From the NCBI GenBank assembly GCA_902799835.1, contig CADCCF010000005.1:193722-257721 (forward strand): 64,000 nt of DNA, read 5' to 3'. A model generated the notes under the pieces. The model was not told the DNA's origin and ran no database searches. It saw only the letters and a list, made by a program, of their open reading frames with translations. Below, one piece after another: positions 688-18,612 of the stretch (the first letter of the stretch is position 1; every line of letters starts with the position of its first letter). The translations under genes were made by a program, and so were the position numbers. The DNA is from an uncultured Pseudomonadota bacterium (GTDB taxonomy: Bacteria > Pseudomonadota > Alphaproteobacteria > RF32 > CAG-239).

Positions 688-754
688 AACCTAAAGCGCT
701 TCTTAGTTCTTAAAGATGCGCTTTTTTCATATCTGTAAAAGAAAGGATACAATC

Positions 755-1003
755 ATGATTAAAGCTATTGCCGACCGTATTTTTGTTCGGCTTGAGCCAC
801 AAGAAAAAACATCTCATCTGATTATTGACAGTTTGCAAAATCCTCGGGTCATCGGTCGGGTTGAAAGCGTCGGTGAAAGGGTAAATTCAGTAAAACCGGG
901 TGACAAAATTTTGTTCCATCTTTTTGATGAGTTACCTTCTCACCAAAAAGATGTGGTCGTTTTAAGAGAAAATTCAATTTTAGGAGTATTTGAAAATGAG
1001 TGA
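755..1003 (+). CDS. Small (82 aa) GroES/cpn10-like beta-barrel protein encoded between terminase and portal
   Basis: An AAAGGA RBS precedes the ATG at 755. The residue pattern is DRIFVR..E.EKT...II......GRV.SVG.....VKPGDKILF.....VVLRE.SIL.V.E. This matches the GroES signature DRV.V....E.KT.GGI....G.V.AVG...VKVGD.V.F....E....IL.I.E. Confidence 0.35.
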   Translation: MIKAIADRIFVRLEPQEKTSHLIIDSLQNPRVIGRVESVGERVNSVKPGDKILFHLFDELPSHQKDVVVLRENSILGVFENE

Positions 1004-2771: not shown

Positions 2772-2998
2772 CCTATTTTTCAAAAAATTTTTCGGAGGAA
2801 GTAATCCTTCCGGATGGAAGCGTTGCCTCATCTGTTGCGGATATTGATCGCTTCCTGAAGGCCAATGATTTGGCCGCAGCATCTGACTATTCTGCTGGTT
2901 ATTTGCAGAATATTCGAATGCTTCAAGAAAAACATCAGCGTGAAGAAATTTTCGCTGACTTACTTCAACAATACAAAAAAAGGATATGGAATGACTAA
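2768..2998 (+). CDS. Small hypothetical phage head protein (76 aa)
   Basis: The ORF overlaps both the portal stop and the scaffold start. It has no recognisable motif. Confidence 0.25.
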   Translation: MTYFSKNFSEEVILPDGSVASSVADIDRFLKANDLAAASDYSAGYLQNIRMLQEKHQREEIFADLLQQYKKRIWND

Positions 2999-3767: not shown

Positions 3768-3805
3768 TTTTATTGTTTTAAATTTTTTTGAAAGGAAAAA
3801 TAAAT

Positions 3806-4843: not shown

Positions 4844-4915
4844 TTATTGCAATATTTAACAGACAAAGGGCTGCTTTATTAAAAAGCAGTCCTTTGTCAT
4901 AATGGGAGAATTAAT

Positions 4916-5482
4916 ATGGATTTTGATACTTATCAAAAATTGATAGAGCAAAATAAAAATCATCTTGATGAAGGTGTATCAGCCAGATTTTATGATCGAG
5001 CGGTCAAAACAGGACAACTCGATAACAATGGTATTCCTAAATTCAAGGATGTTTGTTATTGCGAAATCAGAATCAAGGATAACACCACAGAGGTCTTTGA
5101 TCAGCCGGCCACTCCTGAAAAAATCGAGCGGTTTCCGGTTGAATATGCCCGTTATCAGCTATCCAAAAAACAAGCAAAGGCAGGAACGCCATTAGAGAAT
5201 TTTGCTTTTCTTTCTTTAAGCGAAATTGAAAGTTGTAAATATCATGGAATTTTCACTCTTGAAGCTTTGGCTTCATTATCGGAAGACCGTGTTCGCAATC
5301 TCAATTTGACCAAAGAGCAAAAAACCGCGCAGTGTTTTTTGGAAAACAATCGTCAGGTCAAAAGTACCGAAGAAATTGCTCAACTAAAAGATGGCTATGA
5401 ACAAAAGATAGCTTCGCTTAAAGCTGAACTTGATGATTTGAAAAACAAAATTACAACTTCTGTCAGGAGAAAGAAAAAATGA
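4916..5482 (+). CDS. Hypothetical virion protein (188 aa), possible head completion or adaptor protein
   Basis: A co-oriented ORF with a strong RBS that overlaps the next gene (ATGA). It has a C-terminal coiled coil. Confidence 0.3.
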   Translation: MDFDTYQKLIEQNKNHLDEGVSARFYDRAVKTGQLDNNGIPKFKDVCYCEIRIKDNTTEVFDQPATPEKIERFPVEYARYQLSKKQAKAGTPLENFAFLSLSEIESCKYHGIFTLEALASLSEDRVRNLNLTKEQKTAQCFLENNRQVKSTEEIAQLKDGYEQKIASLKAELDDLKNKITTSVRRKKK

Positions 5483-6189
5483 AATCAATTTTAAGCATAT
5501 GTCAGGAAGTTGCCGATATGGCGGCAGTAAAACGTCCTGAAAGTTTGTTCGCCACCAATTCAATGTCCGACAATATATTTTTGAGTGTTGCCAAATCAAC
5601 GCTCGATAGCCTATTGCGTTATGGTGATTGGCCTGAATTGATTAAGGAAGCAGTTTTACAAACTGATCCGGGACGCAAAAATTATTCTGTTGAAGAAATC
5701 TGTTATGATTTTTATTCTATGTTGCCGAATACCATTTATATCAAAGATATTCATGAAAAAGTCATCGGATCGATAGATCCGCAAACTTGGATGAAGTCAA
5801 AATATTTTTGCGATGACGGCGATTTGCTGAAATTTAAGTTGCAAAATAATCAGCTTAAATTTCTCAATTTGCCCGATTATCCGGTTAAAATAGTTTTTCA
5901 ATATCGTAGCAATTCAATATGCCTGCGTGCCAAAACAATGGAAGAAAGATCATCTATTCAATCAGATGACGACATTCCGATTTTTGATGAGTATTTGGTA
6001 AAGCTCGGAATTTTGTGGCGTTGGTTGAAACGTTCAGGGCTTGATTATGCGGAGGAATATGCTGAATACGAAGCTGAATTAAAAAAGAAATTTTCAGCTC
6101 AGTCAATATCTCAGGATATTCCGCTTGATTGTTATTGCCTTGAACCATTGGACAAAGGAGTGCGGATAAATGTTAAAGTCATACATTAA
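5479..6189 (+). CDS. Hypothetical virion protein (236 aa)
   Basis: It is translationally coupled to its neighbours and lies in the structural module. Confidence 0.3.
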   Translation: MKSILSICQEVADMAAVKRPESLFATNSMSDNIFLSVAKSTLDSLLRYGDWPELIKEAVLQTDPGRKNYSVEEICYDFYSMLPNTIYIKDIHEKVIGSIDPQTWMKSKYFCDDGDLLKFKLQNNQLKFLNLPDYPVKIVFQYRSNSICLRAKTMEERSSIQSDDDIPIFDEYLVKLGILWRWLKRSGLDYAEEYAEYEAELKKKFSAQSISQDIPLDCYCLEPLDKGVRINVKVIH

Positions 6190-7726
6190 TCGCACCGGAA
6201 AATCTTTAAGCTATACCATTGCTGCTCCGATTGGCGGACTAAATTGTCGTGATGCATATAATGTAATGCCACCTGAAGATGCTATTGTTATGGACAATTA
6301 TATTCCGCTTGATAACAAAATAGCTTTGCGTAAAGGCTATATTGATTATTATAAGAATAATCATCGTTTCTTGACTTTGGCAACCTACAAAAAGGATGAT
6401 AAACAAAGGCTTATCGGCATATCCTCAGGTAAGGCTTATAATTTGTCATCAGCATCCAATGTCAGTGTGTATGACAATCTGACTTTCAACAGTGATCGCT
6501 GTCAAACTGTTCAATACAAAGATTATCTTTATTTTATGAATGGTATTGATGTTCCCAAAGTTTATCATCTTGATGATGAAAACAATGAAACTTTTAGCGA
6601 TTGGGGGTTTCGCAATGATAATTTAACACCATCCAAGATTATTGCCGGAGGTGTTTCTAAACAATTTTTTTGGGCTTTGGAAAAAAACACTCTGCGTGTA
6701 TGGTATTCGGCTCAAGCCGGCAATATATCAGGAGATCTTAATTGTTTCGATCTAAGCAGTATCGCGCGGTTTGGCGGCCATCTTATGGCTGTATGTAATT
6801 GGACTGTTGATGGTGGTCAAGGAATAGATGATTTAACTGTGTTTATCACTTCAGAAGGCGAAGTTTTGGTTTATGATGGAACCAATCCTAATTCAGCTGA
6901 CAGTTGGTCGTTGAAAGGCAGTTATAAAATTTCACCACCGATCGGCTATCGATGCACCTTGCAATATCAAGGTGATATTATCATTATCACTGAGGATGGT
7001 TATTTGCCATTATCCAAAGTTTTACCTTTGAACGAAGCCGGTGTTTCAACTTATGCCTTTTCCGATAAGATTCGCGGACTGGTTTTGGAACGTTCGTCAT
7101 CAGGTAAAAACAAAGACGGTTGGCAGGGAGTTATTTATACTCGTGGTGGTTATGCTTTGTTTAATGTGCCGTTAAGCCAGGGTTATGAACAACATGTTGC
7201 TAATCTCAATACCGGAGCGTGGTGTCGTTTCATCGGCATTAAGGCACATTGTTGGTGTTTATTTCATGATAAATTATATTTTGGTTCTGATTATGGCGTT
7301 TGCCAGTTTGACCAGGGTTATTCCGATAATGGTATCTCAATTATCGGTGAGGTTCGTCAAGCTTATACCAATTTAGGAACTGATGTTTTGAAAAAAATTC
7401 AGTTGCTTAATCCTCGCACTGCTTCAAGCGGCAGATATGCCTTGGTTATATATACTGATGTTGATTATATTCACAGTTTGCAAAACACTTCGGAAACTTT
7501 GGGTTTTGGCGGAGTTACCAAATGGAACAAAGCACAATGGTCAAATTCTATCACCCAAGGACAAACCAAATGGCAAACATCTCGTAGCATAATTCGTTCC
7601 AATTGGATTGCCAATTCTGCCACTGGTTACAAGATTAGCGTTGTGTTTAAAACGCGCACAAGTGGTAACTTGATTGAGTGGTATGATACGGGGGTGCGCT
7701 ATGAACAAGCCTCAGGAATCATGTAG
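6170..7726 (+). CDS. Large virion structural protein (518 aa); tail tubular or adaptor candidate in a tail lacking sheath and tube genes
   Basis: The composition is beta-rich. It is the largest non-fibre protein between the head genes and the fibres. Confidence 0.3.
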   Translation: MLKSYINRTGKSLSYTIAAPIGGLNCRDAYNVMPPEDAIVMDNYIPLDNKIALRKGYIDYYKNNHRFLTLATYKKDDKQRLIGISSGKAYNLSSASNVSVYDNLTFNSDRCQTVQYKDYLYFMNGIDVPKVYHLDDENNETFSDWGFRNDNLTPSKIIAGGVSKQFFWALEKNTLRVWYSAQAGNISGDLNCFDLSSIARFGGHLMAVCNWTVDGGQGIDDLTVFITSEGEVLVYDGTNPNSADSWSLKGSYKISPPIGYRCTLQYQGDIIIITEDGYLPLSKVLPLNEAGVSTYAFSDKIRGLVLERSSSGKNKDGWQGVIYTRGGYALFNVPLSQGYEQHVANLNTGAWCRFIGIKAHCWCLFHDKLYFGSDYGVCQFDQGYSDNGISIIGEVRQAYTNLGTDVLKKIQLLNPRTASSGRYALVIYTDVDYIHSLQNTSETLGFGGVTKWNKAQWSNSITQGQTKWQTSRSIIRSNWIANSATGYKISVVFKTRTSGNLIEWYDTGVRYEQASGIM

Positions 7727-8150
7727 AATTATTTATGATTATGGACACAACATAGCTCGTTGGGTTTGTCTCAAATTGGGCTATGATGCCGATGCCATAT
7801 CCGATGGACAAGCGTTAGGTTTTGCTATCGGATCGCAATTAATCGGCGGTTTAATCTACCACAATATTCGTGAAGGGCGCGACTTGTGGTGGACAATTTA
7901 TACCATGGATAAGCGTTGGTGTTGTAAAAGAATTCTTCAAGCAATCTTCGGGCTAGCCTTTGATGTTTATAAGGTTCATCGCATCAGTATATTGGTACGA
8001 TGCGATAATGTCCCATGTCTAAAATTGGTTGAACGACTGGGATTTAAACGCGAAGGAACATTGAGAGCTTATGATGATTCCGGCACTGACAGTTATATCT
8101 ATGGAATGTTACAATCTGAAAATTTATGGAAAGGAAAAACAAATGAGTAA
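7674..8150 (+). CDS. GNAT-family N-acetyltransferase encoded inside the tail module
   Basis: The C-terminal segment LVRCDNVPCLKLVERLGFKREGTLRAYDDSGTDSYIYGML is a classic GNAT acetyl-CoA-binding and beta-strand signature of the RimJ/RimL type. Confidence 0.55.
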   Translation: MSGMIRGCAMNKPQESCRIIYDYGHNIARWVCLKLGYDADAISDGQALGFAIGSQLIGGLIYHNIREGRDLWWTIYTMDKRWCCKRILQAIFGLAFDVYKVHRISILVRCDNVPCLKLVERLGFKREGTLRAYDDSGTDSYIYGMLQSENLWKGKTNE

Positions 8151-9042
8151 AGCAATAGGAAAAGCTTTGGGAGCAGGCGGAGCTTCCACCAGTGTTTATG
8201 GTTCGGAGAGCAATATCTTAAATTATCTCAAAAATTATAACACAACCAACTATGATAATACGTTGAACAATTTGACATCTTATGCCGCCAATGCTTCACA
8301 AAATTTACCCAACATGGGAAATTATAATTTTAGTGTTGCAGCCTCAGATGGTGCCAGACAAAGAGCAGAGCAGGCAACATACAATTCTTATGCCAATTTG
8401 ATGCAGCCGACTTTTGCCAACCAAACTGATGATTTGCAAGCGCGCCTTGCCAATCAAGGATTAGCGGTTGGATCCGAAGCTTATCAAAGAGCAATGAATG
8501 ACTTACAAAACAATCAAAACAACGCCTTGAATCAGGCGGTATATCAGTCGGTGCTCAACGGACAAAACGCTTATTCACAGAGTTTGCAAGATCAAATTAA
8601 TGCAGCTTCTTTTGGCAACGCCGCACAAAGTAATTATATCAATCAGCTTCTGGCAGCCTTACAAAATTCAATTTCCGGCTATACTAATGCGATGAACCAA
8701 TATGATATTCAACATCAGGCAGACAATCGCATTGCTCAAAATCGAGCTTATAATTCGGCTGCTCAACATCAGGCCGGTAATGATTTCTTAAATTCAGCAG
8801 CCAGTGCGGCTGCCAGTGCGTTTTTAGCTTCGGATGCGCGGTTGAAAGAAAATCTTACACCAGTCGGAAAGTTAGATAACGGATTAACGGTTTATTGTTT
8901 CAATTTCAAAGGTAGTAAAGTGTTTCAAATCGGACTATTGGCCCAAGAAGTTCAAGCAGTAATGCCGGAAGCTGTTTTTGAAGGAGAAGACGGTTTCTTA
9001 AAAGTGAATTATCAATTAGCTTGCAAAATAAAGGAGAAATAA
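8143..9042 (+). CDS. Tail fibre or tailspike with a C-terminal intramolecular chaperone (peptidase S74) auto-cleavage domain
   Basis: The C-terminus reads SDARLKENLTPVGKLDNGLTVYCFNFKGSKVFQIGLLAQEVQAVMPEAVFEGEDGFLKVNYQ, matching the S74 signature (SDxRxKxNI ... AQEVQ ... P.AV ... DG). The central region is rich in Gln and Asn. Confidence 0.75.
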   Translation: MSKAIGKALGAGGASTSVYGSESNILNYLKNYNTTNYDNTLNNLTSYAANASQNLPNMGNYNFSVAASDGARQRAEQATYNSYANLMQPTFANQTDDLQARLANQGLAVGSEAYQRAMNDLQNNQNNALNQAVYQSVLNGQNAYSQSLQDQINAASFGNAAQSNYINQLLAALQNSISGYTNAMNQYDIQHQADNRIAQNRAYNSAAQHQAGNDFLNSAASAAASAFLASDARLKENLTPVGKLDNGLTVYCFNFKGSKVFQIGLLAQEVQAVMPEAVFEGEDGFLKVNYQLACKIKEK

Positions 9043-9043
9043 A

Positions 9044-9787
9044 ATGCCTTTTGACAGTGAAGGAGTATTTTCCCGTTTGCACAACTGGGAAGATGATCGC
9101 ATTAATGATATTGACATTATGTCAGATCGTCATGATGAAGAAGATGACAATTTTGCCGATGGACTGAGCCAGTGTTTGTTGCGCAATGGTCAGATTGCCA
9201 TGAGTGGAAATTTGCACATGGGAGGTTTTCAAATTAAAAGTTTAGCTGAAGGTCAAGCCAACAACGATGCAGTGAACAAAGGACAACTTAACACTGTGCA
9301 AACTACTTTGCAAAATGCCATAAATAGTGCAACAACATCAGCAAGTGTGTTTGTCGGCGATATTAAAACTTCATTACAAACTGCCAATCATGGCAACTGG
9401 CTTTTATGTAATGGACAGGCCGTGAGTCGCACAACATATGCTGACTTATTTGCTTTGTTAGGTGAAAATTTCGGTGCCGGTGACGGCTCAACAACTTTTA
9501 ATCTACCGGATTATCGCGGTAAGTTCTTGCGTGGTTTGGGTGGTGATTCCGAAACCGATATGTATACTACCCAAGCTGAGGGATTGCCTGAAATTAACAT
9601 CGGATATACTGGAACGCAAGGCAATGGTGACCCTGATAGTCCTTGGGATTCTGGTGGGGCTATGTATCCTAGAGCTTCTGAGAACATCTATCGTAGAGCA
9701 TCACAAAGTTCTGCAATATATGGAGCTTCGGAACACGTAACACCAATAAACCAAGCGATTAATTACTTTATTAGAGCAAAGGTATAA
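9044..9787 (+). CDS. Tail fibre protein with a phage tail-collar domain
   Basis: The segment GNWLLCNGQAVSRTTYADLFALLGENFGAGDGSTTFNLPDYRGKFLRGLG is the canonical tail-collar motif. Confidence 0.75.
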   Translation: MPFDSEGVFSRLHNWEDDRINDIDIMSDRHDEEDDNFADGLSQCLLRNGQIAMSGNLHMGGFQIKSLAEGQANNDAVNKGQLNTVQTTLQNAINSATTSASVFVGDIKTSLQTANHGNWLLCNGQAVSRTTYADLFALLGENFGAGDGSTTFNLPDYRGKFLRGLGGDSETDMYTTQAEGLPEINIGYTGTQGNGDPDSPWDSGGAMYPRASENIYRRASQSSAIYGASEHVTPINQAINYFIRAKV

Positions 9788-9791
9788 AATC

Positions 9792-10148
9792 ATGAGCGGA
9801 AGAGTTATCAATAATTTAATCGAAATCAGACAAGGCGACAGCTTTGCCGTGAATTTTCAAATCAAAAACAAGTGCCAACCGGCTGACTTGACCGGAGCGG
9901 TCATGACAATGCAGGTAAGAGATGAGAATAACAACCTGATGTTTACTCTTACCGGAACTGATGTTGATGTTAAAAACGGCAAAATGGCTTTGTTGTTTAC
10001 TCCAACCCAAACGAGTATTCCGGTTGGCGATTATAACACCGATATTCAAATCACCACGGCAGACGGTTCGGTTAACACTATTTTTCCGGCTGATGTTAAT
10101 CAAATCGGCACTTTTAGGATAACCGAGCAGGTAACCACGGGGGCATAA
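9792..10148 (+). CDS. Small beta-rich hypothetical tail protein (118 aa)
   Basis: It sits between the fibre genes and is translationally coupled to them. Confidence 0.3.
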   Translation: MSGRVINNLIEIRQGDSFAVNFQIKNKCQPADLTGAVMTMQVRDENNNLMFTLTGTDVDVKNGKMALLFTPTQTSIPVGDYNTDIQITTADGSVNTIFPADVNQIGTFRITEQVTTGA

Positions 10149-10149
10149 A

Positions 10150-12306
10150 ATGCAGGAAAGCAATTTTAACGTAATAATCGACACCGAAAACTATAATGCG
10201 GTGATCGGTGAAGTGGCTAAAATCGATGTCGGTCAGGCGATTAACTATATCAAATCCGGCGAGGCTGAGATTGAAAAAGCCGTTGATGACGGGATTGCTG
10301 AGTTTGATGCTAATGCAACAGCCAAAACCAACGCTTTTAATCAAAATGCCAACGACAAAACAACGGCGTTTAATAATAATGCCAGCGCAAAAACGCAGGA
10401 TTATAACGACAATGCGGTCGCCAAGACAACCACGTTTAATGACAATGCTACCGCAAAAACTTCAAGTTTTGATACTAATGTCACTAATAAGACCAACGCA
10501 TTTAATCAAAACGCTACTGACAAAACTCTCGCTTTTAATACCAATGCGGCGGAAAAACAAGCGGCTGTTGATGCCAGCGCAGTTTTGGCGGAAAGTTTTG
10601 CCAATCAATCCAAGCAATATGCCATCGGTGATCCAACCGAGCCTTTGGGCAACTCTGCCAAATATTGGGCAGAACAAGCATCATCTTCGCTCAGCGGATT
10701 AGCGACACGTGTCAACACAATCGAGGGCAAAATCCCCTCTACGGCAACTGCTAATAATCAGCTGACTGACAAATCTTATGTTGACAACGCCGATAGTAGC
10801 TTGCAACAACAAATTGATGCTATAACCGCGGCAAGCGATGTCACCGATATTGTCGGGACTTATGCCGAGCTTCAGGCTTATGACACTTCAACTTTGCAAA
10901 ACAACAATATTATTAAAGTTTTGCAAGATGAAACGCATAATAACGAAACCACTTATTATCGTTGGGTTATAACCGGCGGAGTGGGAGCTTGGGTGCTGAT
11001 TGGTGAAGAGGGGCCGTATTATACGATTGCCGCCGCTGATGCCACTTTCCAAGAAAAATTGGTTTCCGGCACAAATATTAAAACTGTAAACGGCAATTCA
11101 TTAGTCGGCTCAGGTAATGTCGATATTGATGCTTTGCCAAGTCAGACGGGGCAAGCAGGTAAGTTTTTGACCACCAACGGAAAAACCGCCAGTTGGGCAG
11201 AAGCCAGTGTCACCCCTGACAACAAGTCCATTAGCAAAAACACCTCAAACGCTTTGCAAGCAATCGGTGTCATCGACCAAAACAATCCGGCAAACGCACT
11301 GGGAGTATGGCACGGAACGCAAGCAGAATATGATGCTCTTGCCACACACGATGCCAACACGAGATATGATGTAGATGGTTATGGTGTCTTTATCGGCGAT
11401 GTTCAAATCGCTGCAGGAAGTTCTCAGCTTAACAATCCATTTTCTCTGCTCGATTACAAATATTCAGAGTATGAGTTAAGTAACGCAAGCTGGCTGTTAA
11501 GTAATGGTCAATTTAATTCTGGCACAGTTTATCAATCGGTTTATAATCTTTTGTTGCAAATCTATAACGGGACTGTAACTAAGGCAGGCGTAAGCGTTAA
11601 GCTATCGACCGAAACTTATGCTGATACCGATTTTGTACTCAATACATCTGATACCACTTTCAGATTGCCGTTAAAAGTTGCTCTCGCCAGCGGTAAGGCG
11701 GTTGCAGGTAATGGTAAAATACTTGGACTAACAGACGGAAACACAGAATTTGGTCTGACACACGTTCCAAATTCCTTTTTAGGAACATCATCAAGCATTG
11801 GAACGGATTTGGGAACATCTGCTCCTACTACGTCTCCTAACCCACCAACAAATGTTGCTTATGGCATAACCACAGACGAAACCAAATCCGGTATCGAAAC
11901 CTCTGCCAATGGTCTATATCTTTACTTCTATGTCGGTGAGGTTGTTCAAGATGCCAATATCATTGCCGCCGCTGGTGTGTTGACAGATATAGTAAATTTG
12001 AAAGCTCACAGTATAGTTGAAACTTATGTCAATGGCGATTCATGGTATAGGCTTTACTCTGATGATTGGTGTGAACAAGGAGGGACTATAACCACGCATG
12101 GTTCTTCAACACAGTTTAATCAGGCATTTTTGAAAAATTTTGCAAACATTCCAAATGTTCAGATAACCTTGGAAACAACATATATGCAATCCTACTATGC
12201 AGCACATATGGGCGTCAACTCTGTTACAGTTTCTGGCTTCAACTATTACAGCGGTATGATTGGTTTATCTAAGACATTTTGGCAAGCTTGCGGATATATA
12301 AGTTAA
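10150..12306 (+). CDS. Large tail fibre or tailspike (718 aa) with eight tandem 11-residue repeats near the N-terminus
   Basis: The repeat NA[TS]AKT.AFN. occurs eight times between about nt 10312 and 10575. The distal part is Gly/Ser/Thr-rich and beta-rich. It is followed by a fibre-assembly chaperone gene. Confidence 0.55.
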   Translation: MQESNFNVIIDTENYNAVIGEVAKIDVGQAINYIKSGEAEIEKAVDDGIAEFDANATAKTNAFNQNANDKTTAFNNNASAKTQDYNDNAVAKTTTFNDNATAKTSSFDTNVTNKTNAFNQNATDKTLAFNTNAAEKQAAVDASAVLAESFANQSKQYAIGDPTEPLGNSAKYWAEQASSSLSGLATRVNTIEGKIPSTATANNQLTDKSYVDNADSSLQQQIDAITAASDVTDIVGTYAELQAYDTSTLQNNNIIKVLQDETHNNETTYYRWVITGGVGAWVLIGEEGPYYTIAAADATFQEKLVSGTNIKTVNGNSLVGSGNVDIDALPSQTGQAGKFLTTNGKTASWAEASVTPDNKSISKNTSNALQAIGVIDQNNPANALGVWHGTQAEYDALATHDANTRYDVDGYGVFIGDVQIAAGSSQLNNPFSLLDYKYSEYELSNASWLLSNGQFNSGTVYQSVYNLLLQIYNGTVTKAGVSVKLSTETYADTDFVLNTSDTTFRLPLKVALASGKAVAGNGKILGLTDGNTEFGLTHVPNSFLGTSSSIGTDLGTSAPTTSPNPPTNVAYGITTDETKSGIETSANGLYLYFYVGEVVQDANIIAAAGVLTDIVNLKAHSIVETYVNGDSWYRLYSDDWCEQGGTITTHGSSTQFNQAFLKNFANIPNVQITLETTYMQSYYAAHMGVNSVTVSGFNYYSGMIGLSKTFWQACGYIS

Positions 12307-12317
12307 GGAGAAAACCA

Positions 12318-12692
12318 ATGGAAATTAAAGTCAAATTAAACAAACCTTATACATTCAAGCAACGAGCTGATTTTATTGTCGAGAATAATCACAACAAAGG
12401 CTATGAAATTAAAGAGGTTGCTGATGGGTTAGAGGCTTGGGGTTTAACGAATGAGGAACAAGAACAAGCTGATTTGGAGAATAAGCAAAAATCTATTCGA
12501 GCTACTCGCAATAGTTATTTGCAAGCAACTGATATTTATATGCTGGTTGACTTTCCCGTCACCGATGTTGAGCGTGAAGAATATAAAGCCTATCGGCAAT
12601 ATTTAAGAGATTATACTTTAGGCGAGGATTGGTGGGAGCAAGAGCCCAAGAGTTTCTCAGAATGGAAGGAGGTGATTATCAATGATGAATAG
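12318..12692 (+). CDS. Tail fibre assembly chaperone (Tfa-like, 124 aa)
   Basis: The C-terminal segment SYLQATDIYMLVDFPVTDVEREEYKAYRQYLRDYT resembles the Tfa family signature (LL..SDW...pD......W..YRq.LRD). It lies immediately after a fibre gene. A GGAG RBS is present. Confidence 0.5.
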   Translation: MEIKVKLNKPYTFKQRADFIVENNHNKGYEIKEVADGLEAWGLTNEEQEQADLENKQKSIRATRNSYLQATDIYMLVDFPVTDVEREEYKAYRQYLRDYTLGEDWWEQEPKSFSEWKEVIINDE

Positions 12693-12879
12693 TGAAATTA
12701 TCCAGGATACCAAAGTTGTCGGTTCGGCCGCTTTTGCTTGTGCTCTTGATTATGCGCAAATTTGCAATCAAATGATAACACTTGCCATCAGCATATGTAC
12801 TTTTGTTTATGTTGCCGCCAGGGCATATCAAACAATAAAAGCTTTACGTAAACCTTTCAAAAAGAGGAGACGTAAATGA
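12682..12879 (+). CDS. Holin candidate (65 aa, one TM, highly basic C-terminus)
   Basis: A GGAGGTG RBS precedes it. It has a hydrophobic core (ITLAISICTFVYVAA) and a KKRRRK tail. It overlaps the endolysin start (ATGA). Confidence 0.45.
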   Translation: MMNSEIIQDTKVVGSAAFACALDYAQICNQMITLAISICTFVYVAARAYQTIKALRKPFKKRRRK

Positions 12880-13346
12880 TAGATTTATATACTGTTTCTC
12901 AAAGATTAAAACTTCACGAAGGGCTGCGTTTGCAGCCCTATCGTTGTATAAAGGGCAAACTTACCATCGGGGTGGGGCGTAATTTGGATGATAATCCTTT
13001 AACTCCGGAAGAAGAAAAAATTGTGGGTGATTGGCGTCATGGTATAACCAAAGAAGCTGCAATATATTTGTTGCGCAATGATATCAAATCGGTTTATCGT
13101 GATTTAAAAAAATATCTTCCCTTTTTTAAGGAGTTAGATGAAGAACGACAATATGCATTGATTGATATGGCATTTAATTTAGGTATTGTCGGTCTCCTGA
13201 AATTTCAAAAAATGTTAGCTCATATTGCTTGTGGCAATTATGAACAAGCCGCTGATGAATGCTTAAACAGTCGTTATGCCAAAATTACCGGACGTCGTGC
13301 TGAGCGTATAGCTGAAGTCATACGCCACGGAGTATTCAAGTTATGA
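12876..13346 (+). CDS. Endolysin, GH24 (T4/P22-type) lysozyme
   Basis: The N-terminal segment LKLHEGLRLQPYRCIKGKLTIGVGRNL matches the catalytic motif of GH24 lysozymes (EG.RL..Y.D..G..TIG.G). The Asp position is substituted by Cys. Confidence 0.85.
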   Translation: MIDLYTVSQRLKLHEGLRLQPYRCIKGKLTIGVGRNLDDNPLTPEEEKIVGDWRHGITKEAAIYLLRNDIKSVYRDLKKYLPFFKELDEERQYALIDMAFNLGIVGLLKFQKMLAHIACGNYEQAADECLNSRYAKITGRRAERIAEVIRHGVFKL

Positions 13347-13471
13347 GATGTCTTAAAATCGTTGTCTGGATTTTGGCAGTTATTGCGGTGGGTGTCATGT
13401 TGTGGCGCTCACCGCAATACGCTTATTCAGCGGCACAATCTTTCGTTCTTTTATTGGAGCAAAATATATGA
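13343..13471 (+). CDS. 42-aa single-TM peptide (MRCLKIVVWILAVIAVGVMLWRS...), below the ORF-track size cutoff; possible antiholin or second holin
   Basis: Its ATG overlaps the endolysin TGA (ATGA at 13343-13346). Its own TGA overlaps the Rz-like ATG (ATGA at 13468-13471). It has a strong hydrophobic helix. Confidence 0.3.
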   Translation: MRCLKIVVWILAVIAVGVMLWRSPQYAYSAAQSFVLLLEQNI

Positions 13472-13665
13472 AAGTCAGAGTATTCGTTTATGCCGGTTGT
13501 CTGCTGTTTGCCTATTATCTGGGTTATGCGCAGGCCAAAGTGCAAATAGTGGAAAAACAAGTTGAGGTAATTAAATATGTTCAAACTAAACAAAACCAAA
13601 TTTTATCTGCCCCTCCTGCTTCTAAGCTTGAGTTGCTTGAGCTCATGCGTCGCGGGAAACTATAA
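13468..13665 (+). CDS. Rz-like inner-membrane spanin (65 aa): N-terminal TM plus coiled coil
   Basis: It begins MKVRVFVYAGCLLFAYYLGYA (TM) and continues with a charged helical segment. An Rz1-like lipoprotein ORF is embedded in its +1 frame. Confidence 0.45.
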   Translation: MKVRVFVYAGCLLFAYYLGYAQAKVQIVEKQVEVIKYVQTKQNQILSAPPASKLELLELMRRGKL

Positions 13666-13798
13666 TTATTGTCCGACTTATCCAAATGCTGGCGAAAAAG
13701 TTGCGCAAAGTATTGAACAAATCAATGCGCCGGAATTCTGGGAGTGGTTGGCGCGCATCAACAAACTGCGTCAACAATTAGAACTATGTCAGAAATAA
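13577..13798 (+). CDS. Rz1-like outer-membrane lipoprotein spanin, overlapping the Rz gene in another frame
   Basis: It has a signal peptide with lipobox LLSLSC/LSSC. A Cys-containing mature part is followed by a helical C-terminus. The embedded architecture is characteristic of Rz/Rz1 pairs. Confidence 0.5.
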   Translation: MFKLNKTKFYLPLLLLSLSCLSSCVAGNYNYCPTYPNAGEKVAQSIEQINAPEFWEWLARINKLRQQLELCQK

Positions 13799-13823
13799 TT
13801 TTTTTTATAGAAAGGAGAAAACA

Positions 13824-14015
13824 ATGGACATCCATCCTAAAAACATCTCACCGCTGGGCTACCAAACCGGTGTTGGCGGCATTGATAGTTATGGTGTTAA
13901 TCATAACGGATTTACCAATCAAGATGAGATTGCCTATCAAATGGCTCGCTCAAAACGTGAACAAGATTTGATAAAGCAATATAACGCTCAAGGTATTACT
14001 TCCAACTATCCTTAA
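13824..14015 (+). CDS. Conserved N-terminal module ORF (63 aa), MDIHPKNISPLGYQTGVGGIDSYGVNHNGF...; same frame as the next ORF, separated from it by one TAA
   Basis: A strong RBS (AAAGGAGAAAACA) precedes it. A near-identical N-module recurs at 15467. The downstream in-frame sequence still reads like protein. Confidence 0.4.
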   Translation: MDIHPKNISPLGYQTGVGGIDSYGVNHNGFTNQDEIAYQMARSKREQDLIKQYNAQGITSNYP

Positions 14016-14096
14016 ATCATACCACCAAATTTTTGGGGCAATTCCGCCAATAACTATGGTTTTGGAAATTCTAATATTTCTGCGAATATTGAGAAT

Positions 14097-14690
14097 ATGC
14101 AAAATAACACAACCCCGATACCGGTGGCGACAGCAACGCCGCAACAACAAGCTCAACAGCAACCAAAATCAAATGCTTGGAATATTGTTAAACAGCTTGG
14201 AAATAACTTTGCCGATGCAACTGAGGCCGGAGTTGTAGGTTATGCCACCGGAGCAAGTTTAGGTAATTTTGATGAGGCTATGGGCGGAGCAGCAACGGCA
14301 TTTGGAGTTGATTATAAAGGAGCAAGAGATGCCGTCCGTCAGCTTCAAAATAATTTAAGTCAGCAACATCCGTATGTTTATGGTGCAGGTGAATTTGCCG
14401 GTGCAATGACCACTCCGATGCATTTGGTAAAAGATAACACCTTCGCCAATAAAGCTTTAAATGCGGCAACAGATACCTTAAATGCTTCCACAGGCTATGC
14501 TGAAAATTGGAATGATTTTGCTACCAATTTATTGGTAAACGGAATTGCTAATATTGCAGGATTACCAATAGATAAAATTCCATATACACGTGGAGGTAGT
14601 GTCGTTGGGCGCAAATTTATCAAACAAGGGATTAATTCTGTTGCAGATAAGCTAAAAAACATATATTATGTTGATGAAAATGAAAGATAA
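14097..14690 (+). CDS. Gly/Ala-rich 197-aa protein; candidate toxin or bacteriocin-like body (function unknown)
   Basis: It has a Gln/Pro/Thr-rich N-terminus. Gly/Ala-rich hydrophobic stretches follow (VVGYATGASLGNFDEAMGGAATAFGV, YGAGEFAGAMTTPMHLV). Two small 3-TM paralogs lie directly downstream. Confidence 0.35.
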   Translation: MQNNTTPIPVATATPQQQAQQQPKSNAWNIVKQLGNNFADATEAGVVGYATGASLGNFDEAMGGAATAFGVDYKGARDAVRQLQNNLSQQHPYVYGAGEFAGAMTTPMHLVKDNTFANKALNAATDTLNASTGYAENWNDFATNLLVNGIANIAGLPIDKIPYTRGGSVVGRKFIKQGINSVADKLKNIYYVDENER

Positions 14691-14711
14691 TATATAAAAA
14701 AGGAACAAAAT

Positions 14712-15044
14712 ATGGAAAAAAAGGCCACAAATGGAATCATAAAGACTCTTTTTTATAAAGGAATTGATTTTGTACTTAGTGTGTTAGTTGCATTTGGAAT
14801 TGTTGCGCTGGTAGAAATACATTTTATGGCACCTTTTTTTCCTATTTTGTTCCTTTTGGATTTGTGTCTTATAGCTGGATATCCGTTGTTTTTACGATAT
14901 GTATTAAAAAAGAAATGGTTTGAATGTTGCAAAGATAAATTGTTACAGATAAAATATATATTATTACCTATATTGTTTTTAGAAATATTAGTATTGTTTG
15001 TGATTATAATATGTTATCCAAATGAAATATTGCAAGCTTCATAG
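14712..15044 (+). CDS. Small 3-TM membrane protein (110 aa), immunity-protein-like; paralog 1
   Basis: Three predicted TM helices. It shares the motif PLFLRYVLK[KR]KWFEC.KD..L.IKYILLP with the next ORF. Confidence 0.5.
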   Translation: MEKKATNGIIKTLFYKGIDFVLSVLVAFGIVALVEIHFMAPFFPILFLLDLCLIAGYPLFLRYVLKKKWFECCKDKLLQIKYILLPILFLEILVLFVIIICYPNEILQAS

Positions 15045-15071
15045 ATAAAAAACACAACAAAAAAACAGAAT

Positions 15072-15416
15072 ATGGAAAAAGAGACTATAATAAAAAGAAT
15101 AAAAAAGATAGCATCAGAAGCAATAACTGATGTTATTTGTGTATTGGTTTTATGTGGCTTGATGATTATTTTGGTATTTCATAAATTTGGCCCCCTTTTT
15201 CCTGTTCTGTTCTTGTTTGATTTTTGTTTTATGGTCGGACACCCGTTGTTTTTGCGATACGTTCTCAAACGAAAATGGTTTGAATGCACGAAAGATAATT
15301 TTTTAAGGATAAAATACATCTTGCTTCCATGGTTGATTATGGAACTTTTAGTTTTGTTATATTATCATAAGGTAACATTTTTTATCATCAAAACTGTTAT
15401 GGAAAATAGTAATTAA
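15072..15416 (+). CDS. Small 3-TM membrane protein (114 aa), immunity-protein-like; paralog 2
   Basis: A tandem duplicate of 14712-15044 with the same topology and the same conserved motif. Confidence 0.5.
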   Translation: MEKETIIKRIKKIASEAITDVICVLVLCGLMIILVFHKFGPLFPVLFLFDFCFMVGHPLFLRYVLKRKWFECTKDNFLRIKYILLPWLIMELLVLLYYHKVTFFIIKTVMENSN

Positions 15417-15466
15417 CAAACTGAAAAAATATCAGTATTGATAAAATATAACGAAAGAACAAAACA

Positions 15467-15685
15467 ATGGATATCTATCCTCAAAATATCTCGCCGTTAG
15501 GTTACCAAACCGGACAAAACGGTATCGACAGTTATGGTGTCAACCATAGCGGATTTTCTCTTAGCATCGTAATAAATATAAATAATCCAATGAGTTTCAG
15601 AAATAAAAAAAGCATTACTGATTTAACTCTCAGTAATGCTTTTTTTATATTTAGCAAATTTATTTTGACAATTTCTATATTTTAG
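15467..15685 (+). pseudogene. Orphan or truncated copy of the N-module seen at 13824; it diverges after about 30 aa and runs into a terminator hairpin
   Basis: It begins MDIYPQNISPLGYQTGQNGIDSYGVNHSGF and then loses similarity. The reading frame continues through the palindromic terminator at 15611-15642. Confidence 0.4.
15605..15647. terminator. Perfect 10-bp-stem hairpin flanked by an A-run and a T-run (bidirectional intrinsic terminator); copy 1 of a 41-nt repeat
   Basis: The sequence is aaaaaaagcattactgatttaactctcagtaatgcttttttt. An identical copy lies at 19271-19313. Confidence 0.6.
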
Positions 15686-15919
15686 AATAGCCTGAACTTG
15701 CATTGGTTGATTACCGATGTGAGGTTTGAAACCCTCTTTTCAGGTTATCTGTTAAATCAGATGTAAAAAACTACCTTTTTGCTTTTACGGCAGGAAGGTA
15801 GTTAATAAGATGTATTTTTATATCAAATAAACTACACTATTTCCTGAAAATAGGTTTCAACTTCCTGCCACCTCTCATCAAGGTGGTTTTGTTTTTTAAT
15901 AAAAGAGGGAAATAGGACT

Positions 15920-16606
15920 ATGAAAAAAATTTGTTTTACAATTATCGTTTTGATGGCATTATCAGGATGTGCTTCTGTGCAAGGTTGGAAATATACTGCA
16001 GAACCAAAGATATATAAAAAGCAAGATTTAAATTTAACAATAGCTGTACCTTCACTAAGAGATGAACGCATTAATGAAAATAATGCATTTAAAGCATCAG
16101 GTTGGCTAGCATTAATACCATTGGTTCCATATAGTACGCAATCCGAGTTTAATGTTCCAGAGGCATCACCATTCTTGAATTTTAAACCGACAGAAGATTT
16201 TTCAAAAGCAATTACAGAGGAATTGCAAAATTCTTCAATTTTTAAAGAAGTTTACTATTCAGATCGAACAAAAGATGCTGATTTAATTTTATCTGGAACA
16301 TTAAAAGAATCTCACATAAAGAAATCATGGACATTTTATGGATTATCATTACCAGGAGATTTGTTGTGGTTGTTTGGTGCACCGACAGGCTGGGCAAATA
16401 ATAATATAGTTATTGAATATAAATTAATGGATCAAAATTACAAAATATACTTCGAAAAAACTTATACGGCAAATGTTGAGTTTTACAACAGGTATTGGAC
16501 TAATCCGCACGAAATATTTCGCTTTGAATCAACTCTCAAAAAAATATCTTTAGAATTAGTTGATGATATAAAAGCTATAATTCAACAATTACCAAAGAAT
16601 TTGTAA
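15920..16606 (+). CDS. Lipoprotein of unknown function (228 aa)
   Basis: It has a signal peptide with lipobox LSGC (MKKICFTIIVLMALSGCAS). An AGAGGGA RBS precedes it. A structured leader with a hairpin plus T-run lies immediately upstream. Confidence 0.55.
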   Translation: MKKICFTIIVLMALSGCASVQGWKYTAEPKIYKKQDLNLTIAVPSLRDERINENNAFKASGWLALIPLVPYSTQSEFNVPEASPFLNFKPTEDFSKAITEELQNSSIFKEVYYSDRTKDADLILSGTLKESHIKKSWTFYGLSLPGDLLWLFGAPTGWANNNIVIEYKLMDQNYKIYFEKTYTANVEFYNRYWTNPHEIFRFESTLKKISLELVDDIKAIIQQLPKNL

Positions 16607-16751
16607 TTACAGCAAATATCCATAATCTATTCACAACTCAAAATTGTAACAACATTATAAAAGGGAACTTATATTTCTTATTTATATTCAACCCAAGAGC
16701 TTTGTTTTTTAACAAGGCTCTTTTTTTTATAACTAACTGAAAGGAGAAAAA

Positions 16752-16877
16752 ATGAGTAAAGCAATCGGTAAAGCATTAGGTGCGGGAATAGTTGCACCTT
16801 CCGTTTATGGTACGGAAACTAATATACAAAATTACTTAAATCAATTTAATCAACCGCAAATTGACAATAATTTATGA
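16752..16877 (+). pseudogene. 41-codon leader that duplicates the N-terminus of the tail fibre at 8143; ends at an in-frame TGA
   Basis: A strong AAGGAGAAAAA RBS precedes it. Its product is MSKAIGKALGAGIVAPSVYGTETNIQNYLNQF. The tail fibre begins MSKAIGKALGAGGASTSVYGSESNILNYLKNY. The TGA at 16875-16877 is in the same frame as the GH108 ORF. Confidence 0.45.
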
Positions 16878-16886
16878 TTACAAGCA

Positions 16887-17537
16887 TTGCAAAATCAGAT
16901 GTTGCAACAGCAATCCGCGGGCGTTAATCCTTGGCAACAACAATATAATGCTTTGTTGTTACAAACTTTGCAAAATCAAATACAATTAAAGCAACAGCCA
17001 GTCGATTATTCATTATATGGAACTGATTTTAGTAAAGAATTTATCGATCAAATGCTAGGTGATAATGATTATCAACGCGCATTACAAGAATATGCAATTC
17101 CTAATGAAAAAGGTTATGTAAATAATATAAATGATCCGGGCGGAGAAACCAATATGGGAATATCTAAACGTTATCACCCTAATGAAGATATTAAAAATTT
17201 AACCAGAGAAAGAGCTAATGCTTTGTTATATAATGAAGTGTGGAATTGGAATGGTATCAACAAACTTCCTCGTGAAATAAGAGGATTTGTATTTGATCAT
17301 GGTATCAGAACAAGTCCTCAAAATGCTATTGAAACGACGCATCGAGCATTAGGAATTAATCCGGTTGGTGATATTATTGGTGATATAACATTAAATCTTC
17401 TGCAAAATACGAATTATGAGGATTTTTTACAAAAATACCAAAATCTTGTGAGAGAACAAGATAAGAATAATGCCAACTATAATTACTTTGGCAATGGTTG
17501 GAATAACAGAACAAACGGTTACCATATCTCTTATTAA
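16887..17537 (+). CDS. GH108-family (phage muramidase-like) domain protein
   Basis: The motif EKGYVNNINDPGGETNMGIS matches the GH108 catalytic signature EGGY..D..D.GG.T..GIT. The ORF tool starts it at a TTG. It is in frame with the fibre-like leader upstream. Confidence 0.55.
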   Translation: MQNQMLQQQSAGVNPWQQQYNALLLQTLQNQIQLKQQPVDYSLYGTDFSKEFIDQMLGDNDYQRALQEYAIPNEKGYVNNINDPGGETNMGISKRYHPNEDIKNLTRERANALLYNEVWNWNGINKLPREIRGFVFDHGIRTSPQNAIETTHRALGINPVGDIIGDITLNLLQNTNYEDFLQKYQNLVREQDKNNANYNYFGNGWNNRTNGYHISY

Positions 17538-17542
17538 AGTTG

Positions 17543-17566
17543 AAAAGGAGCTTTTATAAGCTCCTT
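17543..17566. terminator. Bidirectional intrinsic terminator between convergent genes
   Basis: AAGGAGCTT-TTAT-AAGCTCCTT is a perfect 9-bp stem followed by a T-run. Confidence 0.6.
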
Positions 17567-17572
17567 GTTTTT

Positions 17573-18088
17573 TTAATCTTTATAGTCTTGCAAAAATTCG
17601 TAGCTAATTAAAGTTTTTTCTACTGATTGAAGTAAATCTTTATCATATTGTTCAATAATTTCCCAAGTTTTCCCCATTGTTTCTTGATTACATATTGTTC
17701 CAGAAGGGATTTTATATTTATTTAAACAGTAAATAATACCATAAGCTGAAGTAGTAGATTTGACATAATTATGATAATCATTTATATTTTGCACAAAATT
17801 ATAATTATAAAAACTTTTTATAATATCTTCTGTTAATGCATTCATACATGTTAATCTTTCTGTCTCTTTAGAACACAAAGATAATTTTTTCTGATATTGT
17901 AACAATAAATTATAATCATTTATAATCTCTTTGATTTTTTTCTTATTGCTCCAATCATTTGAATTATAGACTCTATCAATATCAATGCCGTGATAAACTT
18001 CAGCCTCTGCATTTAAGCTCAAAGTTAAAAATATTCCTAAAATAAAAACAATTTTTTTCATATTATACCTCATCATAAATATAAGCAT
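17573..18088 (-). CDS. Secreted Cys-containing protein (171 aa); weak resemblance to LprI/DUF1311-type lysozyme-inhibitor domain
   Basis: It has a signal peptide (MKKIVFILGIFLTLSLNAEA). The mature part begins C-x8-C and the segment LSLCSKETERLTCMNALTEDIIKSFYNY recalls the DUF1311 pattern C.......E..IC...L..D..LN..Y. Confidence 0.3.
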   Translation of the reverse strand: MLIFMMRYNMKKIVFILGIFLTLSLNAEAEVYHGIDIDRVYNSNDWSNKKKIKEIINDYNLLLQYQKKLSLCSKETERLTCMNALTEDIIKSFYNYNFVQNINDYHNYVKSTTSAYGIIYCLNKYKIPSGTICNQETMGKTWEIIEQYDKDLLQSVEKTLISYEFLQDYKD

Positions 18089-18294
18089 AATAACCTAAAG
18101 CTTAAAGTCAAGGTGAAATTATCACACCAAAAAATTGCAACAATTATATAAATAGGAACTAAAAATTCATTATCAAAAACTATCCGCAGTATAGCATTAA
18201 CTTTAGGAGTAATTTTACTAATGAGAAGGTTAGGTATTTTTTGTTCGGTAAACAATTCTTACATGCCGAATACTTAAACAAAAAAAATCCTCGA

Positions 18295-18612
18295 TTATGT
18301 CGAGGATTTACTTTCAGTCGAGGAGTTATCTATCCCGTATTTCTTTAAGATCTCCGGTGCAAATATAAAATTCCCCATACCCATAAACGCCCTTATCGCT
18401 CGTGCTGGTGGACAACCAAACGTTACAAGCAAAGTTTGTTTGCTTGGGGAATATCCGACATGATTACCATTCACAATATAAGTTTGAGCATCAGGATAAC
18501 ATGTGATGGAACGAACTCCGCCCCCGGGTACGGTACAAATGTAGGGCACCATTTTTAATACCTTCACACCATAACAACCTTTCGACACAATCATTATTTC
18601 TAATTTTTTCAT
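18295..18612 (-). CDS. Small protein of unknown family, paralog A (105 aa); core motif VPYICTVPGGGVRSITCYPDA
   Basis: It is paralogous to 19322-19621. Each copy has a duplicated upstream promoter and operator region. Confidence 0.5.
   Translation of the reverse strand: MKKLEIMIVSKGCYGVKVLKMVPYICTVPGGGVRSITCYPDAQTYIVNGNHVGYSPSKQTLLVTFGCPPARAIRAFMGMGNFIFAPEILKKYGIDNSSTESKSST

Follow-up and report, generated by a model that had tools for sequence, protein, structure and literature searches.

Introduction

Polymorphic toxins whose N-terminal region is related to a phage particle protein are known from the MuF family (PMC5576092; Bxa, PMC11699363). In this family the region heads variable toxin domains, each toxin gene has at least one immunity gene behind it, the genes are carried by prophages of gut bacteria, and the means of delivery is unproven. 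Colicin-like bacteriocins combine a disordered N-terminal uptake region with a C-terminal killing domain, and their genes are found near those for membrane or periplasmic immunity, a stress-type repressor and lysis. Release of colicin Ib in Salmonella depends on prophage lysis (PMC7374059). Here we describe a locus with likenesses to both groups in a 64,000-nucleotide (nt) stretch of DNA (the window) from an uncultured Pseudomonadota bacterium (Alphaproteobacteria; RF32; CAG-239), i.e., positions 193,722 to 257,721 of contig CADCCF010000005.1 in assembly GCA_902799835.1. The locus consists of a putative toxin gene interrupted by a stop codon and two genes encoding small membrane proteins, and it lies directly after the lysis genes of a podovirus-like element; our analysis indicates that the core of this locus is very probably a polymorphic toxin-immunity cassette.

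The gene under study encodes an N-terminal module that we call N-A and a C-terminal domain containing the motif LGNFDE (the LGNFDE domain), and a second N-terminal module, N-B, is present in related toxins and in a protein of the phage-like element. By analogy, we regard the MuF family as the nearest precedent in kind, and pesticin, colicin M and the pore-forming colicins as the nearest in mode of action. The likeness to MuF systems extends to the particle-protein-related N-region on variable toxins, the candidate immunity genes that follow, the gut hosts and the unproven delivery. The locus differs in that Pfam recognizes no MuF (Phage_Mu_F/SPP1 gp7) domain in N-A, N-B or the full proteins, in its modules of 41 to 93 amino acids (aa) rather than approximately 300 aa, and in its Gram-negative alphaproteobacterial host. 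MuF genes occupy the slot for head morphogenesis and DNA packaging, whereas the genes described here are found after the spanin genes, between the repressor and the small terminase subunit gene (terS), or away from phage; MuF toxins act in the cytoplasm, as ADP-ribosyltransferase, deaminase or (p)ppApp synthetase enzymes, whereas the toxins described here are predicted to act on the envelope. With the colicin-like bacteriocins the locus appears to share the disordered N-terminal region, the C-terminal killing domain and the kinds of neighboring genes listed above, but it lacks any recognizable uptake domain of the colicin, pyocin or pesticin kind and any recognizable Ton or Tol box, and the toxins, at 230 to 400 aa, are much smaller than colicins. 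Colicin Ib is likewise a toxin without an exporter that relies on lysis by a resident temperate phage, but it is plasmid-borne and unlinked to that phage, whereas the toxin gene described here starts 25 nt after a spanin gene (PMC7374059).

Exchangeable N-terminal modules and a co-varying partner gene

Three properties of polymorphic toxin systems (as defined by Zhang/Aravind 2012 and Jamet & Nassif 2015) were found in this family, i.e., variable C-termini on a conserved N-region, an adjacent partner gene that co-varies with the C-terminus, and arrays, orphan fragments and traces of recombination. An exhaustive search with an N-A profile identified 313 clusters at 50% identity, at least 100 of which carry other C-termini, which bears out the exchangeable N-module that the initial annotation had proposed from the window and shows it to be shared with many other loci. 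The module is approximately 93 aa long rather than the 30 aa first recognized, it always starts at residue 1 of the protein, and homology among its copies begins 13 to 17 nt upstream of the ATG, so that the ribosome-binding site (RBS) travels with it as part of a portable 5′ constant region. The LGNFDE domain is in turn headed by at least six different N-termini, namely N-A, N-B (MSKAIGKALGAG...) and at least four others. In the compared loci L010, L015, L033 and L035, three to six N-A genes stand in tandem, accompanied by pseudogenes and 5′ fragments, and these arrays and orphan fragments agree with the toxin-locus layout suggested initially.

At all 26 loci that contain an LGNFDE domain, a gene encoding a protein with three transmembrane spans (3-TM) is present less than 400 nt downstream and on the same strand, irrespective of the N-terminus, with one to three tandem paralogs per locus. 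The small membrane-protein gene, which the initial annotation regarded as immunity-like, thus tracks the C-terminal domain and not the N-module. The two copies in the window are 48% identical to each other and share the motif PLFLRYVLK[KR]KWFEC. A hydropathy scan places two segments above threshold in the 110-aa protein and three in the 114-aa protein; when the scan is read together with the sequence and the positive-inside charges, three hydrophobic spans are seen in each, as originally described. Homologs of the first protein are 43 to 48% identical, and its gene differs by 1 nt from those of L010 and L006, while the second gene has a ratio of non-synonymous to synonymous substitution rates (dN/dS) of 0.20 against L006. 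The LGNFDE and 3-TM pair is also found in ordinary chromosomal contexts, i.e., beside aspS and ftsK (L001), mfd (L003), lptB and hpf (L126), and an ABC-F gene and pgk (L128). These observations suggest that the two 3-TM proteins most likely protect against the LGNFDE toxin.

The position of these genes directly after the spanin genes, together with the size and three-span topology of the 3-TM proteins, which resemble those of class I holins, would also fit a role as lysis accessories, with the 3-TM proteins as class-I-like holins or antiholins and the 288-aa protein as a membrane-active lysis factor. We consider this extremely improbable, since the element already has a separate 65-aa holin, whose gene precedes that of the endolysin, since the 3-TM family follows LGNFDE domains even where lysis genes are absent (L001, L003, L126 and L128), and since the partner gene switches with the C-terminal domain.

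Table 1. Features of the locus and its surroundings, in window coordinates
Feature	Coordinates	Strand	Basis or remark
Right 13.8 kb of podovirus-like element (terminase, portal, capsid, tail, fibres, lysis)	1..13798	+	
Virion protein: N-B, Q/N-rich coiled-coil-like shaft, Peptidase_S74 chaperone domain	8143..9042	+	PF13884, E 3e-10
Lysis cassette: holin, GH24 endolysin, inner-membrane spanin (i-spanin), outer-membrane spanin (o-spanin)	12682..13798	+	Directly upstream of toxin gene
N-A module with RBS, portable 5′ constant region	13807..14105	+	Homology to other copies
Toxin gene, 288 codons	13824..14690	+	N-A module, linker, LGNFDE domain; in-frame TAA at 14013-14015
3-TM inner-membrane protein, candidate immunity 1, 110 aa	14712..15044	+	Three hydrophobic spans; follows LGNFDE domain
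3-TM paralog, candidate immunity 2, 114 aa	15072..15416	+	48% identical to the first
Orphan 5′ N-A fragment (RBS and 30 codons) fused to AT-rich sequence	15454..15685	+	tblastn E 3e-14
Hairpin with A-run and U-run flanks, bidirectional terminator-like	15603..15648	.	dG -22.8 kcal/mol
2.7-kb insertion relative to L006 and L010, with second cassette	15652..18328	.	blastn breakpoints
Lipoprotein, 228 aa, lipobox LSGC	15920..16606	+	No family found
Second toxin: N-B (41 aa), Q/L-rich linker, GH108 muramidase	16752..17537	+	TGA at 16875-16877
171-aa signal-peptide protein, candidate periplasmic immunity	17573..18088	-	Convergent with GH108 gene
N-A linker remnant, decayed (NYPQYSINF...)	18169..18288	+	tblastn E 0.005, translation

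Premature stop codons in both toxin genes

All the open reading frames of the initial annotation are present at the positions it gave, but the 63-aa (13824-14015) and 197-aa (14097-14690) products that it treated as two genes are in the same frame and separated by a lone TAA. A search with the read-through product retrieved 370 relatives, and the uninterrupted homologs that cover the full query are 287 to 307 aa long, up to 93% identical, and have Gln at the position of the stop. Intact copies read CCG CAA TAC GGT ACT AAC where the window reads CCT TAA ATC ATA CCA CCA AAT, i.e., a complex indel with a net gain of 3 nt. An independent assembly in ENA (L124) is 100% identical to the window across 15.5 kb, and the stop is therefore not a local assembly slip. 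Judged against its intact homologs, the pair is a nonsense allele of a single gene encoding N-A (codons 1 to approximately 93), a linker rich in Asn, Gln and Gly, and an approximately 170-aa helical LGNFDE domain.

The second toxin gene in the window, which encodes N-B and a GH108 muramidase domain (PF05838, E 3e-14), is likewise interrupted, by a TGA where a homolog has Leu. Each window toxin thus contains one in-frame stop 41 to 63 codons in, the TAA allele keeps the frame, and 63-aa products recur in several other metagenomic contigs. In addition, dN/dS downstream of the TAA is still low (0.14 between the window and the intact L010 copy, against 0.10 for a pair of intact copies), so that either the lesion is recent or some constraint is left. 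These features would fit programmed stops, by readthrough or a two-gene design, that either throttle the toxin or yield a module-less 197-aa product from the ATG at 14097. We regard this as highly improbable, because neither codon, position nor context is the same for the two stops, the reading frame of most homologs runs through without a stop, other family members in L008 and L010 are broken at other positions, and L007, which has the same TAA allele, also has a 2-nt frameshift insertion and a truncated 3′ end and is clearly dead. Recoding of the stop codons was dropped for the first two of these reasons.

We therefore think that the LGNFDE toxin gene of the window is probably inactive through its premature stop, and the neighboring GH108 toxin gene likewise. 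Since both toxin genes are stopped while their partner genes are intact, and candidate immunity gene 1 is 1 nt away from its relatives, the strain is probably an immune non-producer of both toxins, a state that bears on toxin-immunity dynamics in gut communities.

The LGNFDE domain and its possible target

The LGNFDE domain has no match in Pfam (E ≤ 0.1), NCBIfam, PADLOC or a PDB profile search (E ≤ 10), and N-A, N-B and the 3-TM family are absent from the same four databases; PHROGs gives at most weak matches, such as that of the LGNFDE body to phrog_5880, a family of unknown function (E 1e-4 to 1e-3). AlphaFold2 models, built from alignments of 101 to 113 sequences, contain seven helices at low confidence, with a mean predicted local distance difference test score (pLDDT) of 45 for a full-length homolog and 47.5 for the 197-aa body alone. 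N-A itself is partly ordered (pLDDT 70 to 82), and the linker that follows it is modeled with low confidence. Foldseek searches of PDB and BFVD returned no significant match (best E 2.5), and the low confidence of the model makes this a weak test of the fold. Our literature searches found no description of the N-A/LGNFDE architecture, which does not prove its absence. If these assignments hold, at least two N-modules, the LGNFDE domain and the 3-TM family would be new parts for interbacterial antagonism in uncultured host-associated alphaproteobacteria.

The hydrophobic segments that the initial annotation saw in the 197-aa body are not of transmembrane grade: the highest Kyte-Doolittle mean over 19 residues is 1.06, and no segment reaches the threshold of 1.6. 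The hydropathy scan also found no hydrophobic hairpin of the kind present in pore-forming colicins (approximately 35 to 40 apolar residues). The suggested link to pore-forming bacteriocins or colicins was thus not borne out by sequence, profile or fold, including the colicin pore domain. The 3-TM proteins do have the character of the inner-membrane immunity proteins of pore-forming colicins, which have three to four spans, but their genes are co-directional with the toxin gene, in contrast to the colicin-like bacteriocins. Asp, Glu and Arg residues are invariant in the motifs LGNFDE, RDAxRQLQ, HPYxYGxxEF and ASAGYAENWNDF. The LGNFDE domain is always accompanied by an integral inner-membrane protein, and its sister toxins act outside the cytoplasm; it is therefore predicted to have its target in or at the inner membrane, on the periplasmic side. 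A relationship between LGNFDE and the SAA domains of sister toxins was considered, and hhalign found none.

Many homologs, with any N-module, also carry the linker motif QQLRMPxGSEQQITMPSYELQQ 5′ of the LGNFDE domain (P0045, P0053, P0055, P0066, P0103 and L028 5866-6603). In some short forms this motif is the N-terminus itself, and it could serve as a site of processing or binding.

Sister toxins with the N-A module

Examination by Pfam of 76 N-A proteins with other C-termini identified GH108 in 11, PG_binding_3 in 6, SAA in 4, T6SS_VgrG3-like_C in 3, Tlde1 in 3, YkuD in 2, SLT in 2, Pesticin in 1 and Phage_lysozyme in 1. No nuclease, deaminase, ADP-ribosyltransferase or other cytoplasmic toxin domain was found by Pfam in this set, and all the recognizable C-termini would attack peptidoglycan or, in the predicted case of SAA, lipid-linked precursors of the envelope. 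The prokaryotic SAA (prok-SAA) "lipocone" domains have been described as tips of polymorphic toxins, with this predicted target and with small four-Cys membrane immunity proteins (PMC12419801). The SAA sister toxins are encoded at L010 3231-4367, L008 3756-4662, L129 27-1158 and L035 2493-3173 (Pfam E 6e-14 to 3e-20). Small Cys-rich proteins with a single transmembrane span are encoded 3′ of SAA toxins in L010, as two tandem paralogs, and in L008, and they fit the four-Cys immunity class as it is outlined in that report. Its available text assigns other trafficking domains to these toxins, and neither the N-A/N-B architecture nor LGNFDE is among those it names (PMC12419801).

The partner genes differ with the type of toxin in other sister cassettes as well. 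For example, an SLT-like toxin is followed by a gene encoding a multi-span membrane protein, and GH108 and VgrG3-like toxins have genes for signal-peptide proteins on the opposite strand. The immunity genes of pesticin (Pim) and colicin M (Cmi) are likewise on the opposite strand, as with the GH108 toxins described here.

Domains such as Tlde1, the C-terminal muramidase of VgrG3 and lysozyme or SLT are typical of type VI secretion system (T6SS) effectors, and the small size of our toxins, their lack of a signal peptide and their periplasmic, immunity-like small partners are also as in effectors such as Tlde1, VgrG3 and Tae/Tge. The toxins could then be cargo of a T6SS, or of another contact-dependent system, encoded elsewhere in the genome, with the N-modules binding an adaptor or spike. 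We consider this quite unlikely. No vgrG, hcp, PAAR or adaptor genes are present in the window or in nine annotated neighborhoods, these nine also contain no T6SS, type I secretion or type V secretion genes, the N-modules are unlike MIX, FIX, PAAR and Rhs as far as Pfam shows, and the recurrent genomic partner of the cassettes is a phage-like element and not a T6SS.

A comparison of N-A with N-B by hhalign found no homology. As sampled, the N-A family is limited to metagenome-assembled genomes of uncultured rumen or gut Alphaproteobacteria; the window is part of an 848-kb contig from such a genome. We also observed a unit of approximately 100 aa (GEAI...NYGLDKGIYKHG...), for which no family was found, as the C-terminus of N-A toxins of 347 to 401 aa (L017 4501-5703 and L035 7000-8040) and as a free-standing gene after the 3-TM gene of L003 (9175-9474). 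If this unit is a nuclease, the rule that the payloads act only on the envelope would fail.

Association with a podovirus-like element

The assembly L124 extends 5 kb to the left of the window (L124 1-5085) and brings the whole element to approximately 16.5 kb. Beyond the flanking host genes, this left part begins with an S24 repressor gene, followed by two small genes, terS and terL, and then a Cpn10-like gene and the portal gene. Neither integrase nor replication genes are present between the flanking host genes in the window and L124 combined, and L002 has an element of the same layout. The structural genes resemble those of Brucella and Sulfitobacter podoviruses. In L050, a bona fide phage from IMG/VR that is related to the element, the spanin genes are followed by an integrase gene and not by toxin genes. 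From its gene content the element looks defective or domesticated and particle-forming, i.e., similar to a gene transfer agent (GTA) or a killer particle.

The initial annotation placed the cassette directly after the spanin genes and regarded it as phage cargo. The placement is correct, with the toxin ATG 25 nt past the o-spanin stop, and this position is occupied by an N-A toxin gene in at least four diverged elements, namely those of L010, L032, L033 and the window (endolysins 61 to 97% identical). In L002 and L015, a toxin array separates the repressor side of the element from terS, and in L016, L028 and L129 toxin cassettes replace the element from the S74 virion gene onward. Genes of the element are present within 6 kb at 11 of the 35 genome loci. 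However, carriage as phage cargo is not established, because L006, which is 90% identical in DNA, bears the same cassette and the same downstream chromosome with aspS upstream and no phage genes, its homology to the window starting 17 nt before the toxin ATG. Many other cassettes likewise have no phage genes near them, and N-A was not found in the IMG/VR viral contigs. We therefore describe cassettes and element as recurrent partners that recombine with each other.

The chromosomal neighbors of the cassette also vary. The left neighbor is aspS in L006 and L001 and, in the window, the element, which is preceded by DsbD and DUF179 genes; the right neighbor is ftsK in L001 and M48 and RNase E genes in L006. 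These changes suggest chromosomal rearrangements through recombination between N-A copies.

N-B and the virion protein

The first 41 codons of the S74 virion protein gene (8143-8265), whose product matches phrog_6121 ("virion structural protein"), and those of the GH108 toxin gene (16752-16874) encode 63% identical protein. N-B also heads LGNFDE toxins in L003 to L005, and the nucleotide match between the L003 toxin and the S74 gene begins 14 nt upstream of the start codon, in the RBS region. The virion protein has 588 homologs, and among those listed, all that are neither fused to a GNAT domain nor truncated at the N-terminus have an N-B-like N-terminus. Because N-B is shared and is conserved in the virion homologs, the virion S74 protein is the source of the module, with the toxins having borrowed the N-terminus of a particle protein. 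The possibility that the N-module is an ordinary phage structural domain thus applies to N-B and not to the N-A of the gene under study, for which no relative was found among the proteins of the element or other virion proteins.

The sharing of N-B, with its RBS, by two toxin types and the virion protein raises the main alternative, namely that the N-modules attach toxins to the podovirus-like particle, either at the needle or fiber site of the S74 protein or as ejected internal proteins. The particle would then deliver them into the periplasm of the target, and immunity would protect sister cells that resist the DNA but not the payload. Conservation of an element without integrase and replication genes, as expected of a domesticated particle, the cassettes in or beside the element at nearly a third of the loci, including those that replace the S74 slot, and the fact that every assignable toxin domain works from the periplasm are all in keeping with such docking, and the MuF toxins provide a precedent for a phage structural domain with polymorphic toxins (PMC5576092). 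Docking would explain N-B, the retention of a particle that lacks replication genes and the physical association, but not N-A or the other N-termini. N-A is the majority module and has no detectable virion relative, at least six unrelated N-termini occur on the same toxin domain although the docking site on the virion is conserved, cassettes are also found far from any element, and a pattern scan of IMG/VR viral contigs for N-A returned nothing. In a phage collection, N-A was found only on one unannotated 5-kb fragment that is itself a toxin array (MT838567; a microvirus origin for this record was considered and dropped). We consider docking unlikely overall, and give a similarly low probability to its extension, in which the element is a domesticated "killer particle" with envelope-attacking toxins that dock on or are ejected from it through N-modules copied from the virion protein (N-B). 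If true, such a particle would be a phage-derived toxin-delivery device distinct from tailocins, extracellular contractile injection systems (eCIS), GTAs and MuF toxins.

The envelope-only activities would also suit the needs of podovirus genome ejection. The toxins could thus be virion-borne proteins that breach the wall or membrane on phage entry, and the partners could be prophage-encoded blockers that exclude superinfecting phage, with T4 gp5 lysozyme and Sp, and T4 Imm, as analogues. The presence of N-B in a virion protein and the periplasmic or inner-membrane location of the partners are in line with this proposal. It is very unlikely, since tandem arrays of different enzymes with their own partners, orphan fragments and stand-alone chromosomal pairs among housekeeping genes are hallmarks of antagonism, the genes lie outside the structural block, and genes of this kind are missing behind the spanin genes of the related phage L050.

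In L050 (9956-13615), an N-B-type protein without S74 ends in a glycine-zipper tail, with a weak match to "internal virion protein", and is followed by proteins of 330 aa and 632 aa; the latter contains a short motif (GATFGGYD...) as in the LGNFDE domain. A relationship between this 632-aa structural-module protein and LGNFDE was not significant (hhalign E 0.039). A GNAT acetyltransferase gene (7674-8150) lies between the genes for a 518-aa tail protein and the S74 protein, and is conserved in all related elements; this slot is also present in L009, L016, L028, L045 to L048 and L129, and the GNAT is fused to the S74 protein in some homologs of 443 to 446 aa (P0214, P0235 and P0237).

Proposed route of release and uptake

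Our preferred reading combines a polymorphic toxin-immunity cassette, release by lysis, colicin-like uptake and an immune non-producer strain. As a whole we consider it somewhat probable, and its route through lysis and outer-membrane uptake is put forward tentatively, as a possibility that falls a little short of even. No signal peptide or transmembrane segment was found in the toxin by signal prediction and hydropathy scan, and no terminator-like site was called between the o-spanin and toxin genes. A double-glycine leader in N-A was considered and dropped, since the GG is not conserved among homologs. We propose that the toxin would be transcribed with the late and lysis genes of an SOS-type element (S24 repressor) and would escape when the cell is lysed by the holin, endolysin and spanins of the element. 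The N-module and disordered linker may then bring it through the outer membrane of related cells in the way that the translocation domains of colicins, pesticin and colicin M do; the LGNFDE domain would damage the inner membrane, or a target embedded in it, from the periplasmic side, and the 3-TM proteins would neutralize it at the inner membrane. Uptake through N-modules would account both for the unrelated N-modules on the same payload, each serving its own entry route, and for the restriction of the payloads seen to ones that act in the periplasm.

Several observations weigh against parts of this reading. The cassettes of L006, L001, L126 and L128 have no lysis genes nearby. Outer-membrane import is proposed by analogy, and no Ton or Tol box and no receptor-binding domain is recognizable in N-A. 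That N-B forms the N-terminus of a virion protein favors particle docking over uptake. Approximately 50 of the 76 sister toxins have no assigned C-terminus, so that action on the envelope only is not proven. The LGNFDE domain has a pLDDT of 30 to 47 and no recognizable fold, and its invariant Asp, Glu and Arg residues are no less compatible with an enzyme than with a pore-former. Finally, the constraint still seen after the TAA means that loss of function is recent or incomplete. The combination of envelope payloads, a virion-derived module and a minimal phage-like element poses the question of whether particles, or just lysis, deliver toxins between Gram-negative cells.

Orphan fragment, insertion and second cassette

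The truncated second N-module at 15467 and its terminator, both described initially, were recovered. This copy of N-A shares 26 of 31 residues and approximately 13 nt of the upstream RBS region with the first copy and then diverges, and L006 and L010 contain this fragment too, with an identical breakpoint. By comparison with these loci, it is a recombination scar. Toxin fragments left by recombination in arrays are also known from contact-dependent inhibition (CDI) and Rhs systems, but classical CDI/Rhs orphans are 3′ toxin-immunity ends, whereas the fragment described here is a 5′ constant module with its RBS. The hairpin within the fragment has 19 bp and a U-run (z -8.4), and none of 200 shuffled sequences was as stable.

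Homology to L006 stops at 15651, three bases past this hairpin, and resumes after a 2.7-kb insertion with a GC content of 0.28 to 0.30; L006 and L010, which lack the insertion, are approximately 90% identical to the window at the nucleotide level. The insertion is bounded by N-A fragments, with the hairpin at its left edge and, at its right edge, the decayed linker remnant and a terminator-like site on the minus strand (18285-18309). It carries the GH108 toxin gene and, convergent with it, the gene for a 171-aa protein that has no match in Pfam, NCBIfam or PADLOC. A homolog of this protein adjoins a GH108 remnant in L007, and the opposite-strand arrangement is also seen at two GH108 toxins of L002. 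The insertion further encodes the 228-aa lipoprotein, which may have a role as an orphan immunity or a surface-exclusion protein; it likewise has no match in Pfam, NCBIfam or PADLOC, and no relation was found to a 224-aa gene product encoded upstream of the N-B toxin in L003. The signal and lipobox region of this lipoprotein weakly matches Cor superinfection-exclusion proteins (PHROG, E 0.0015).

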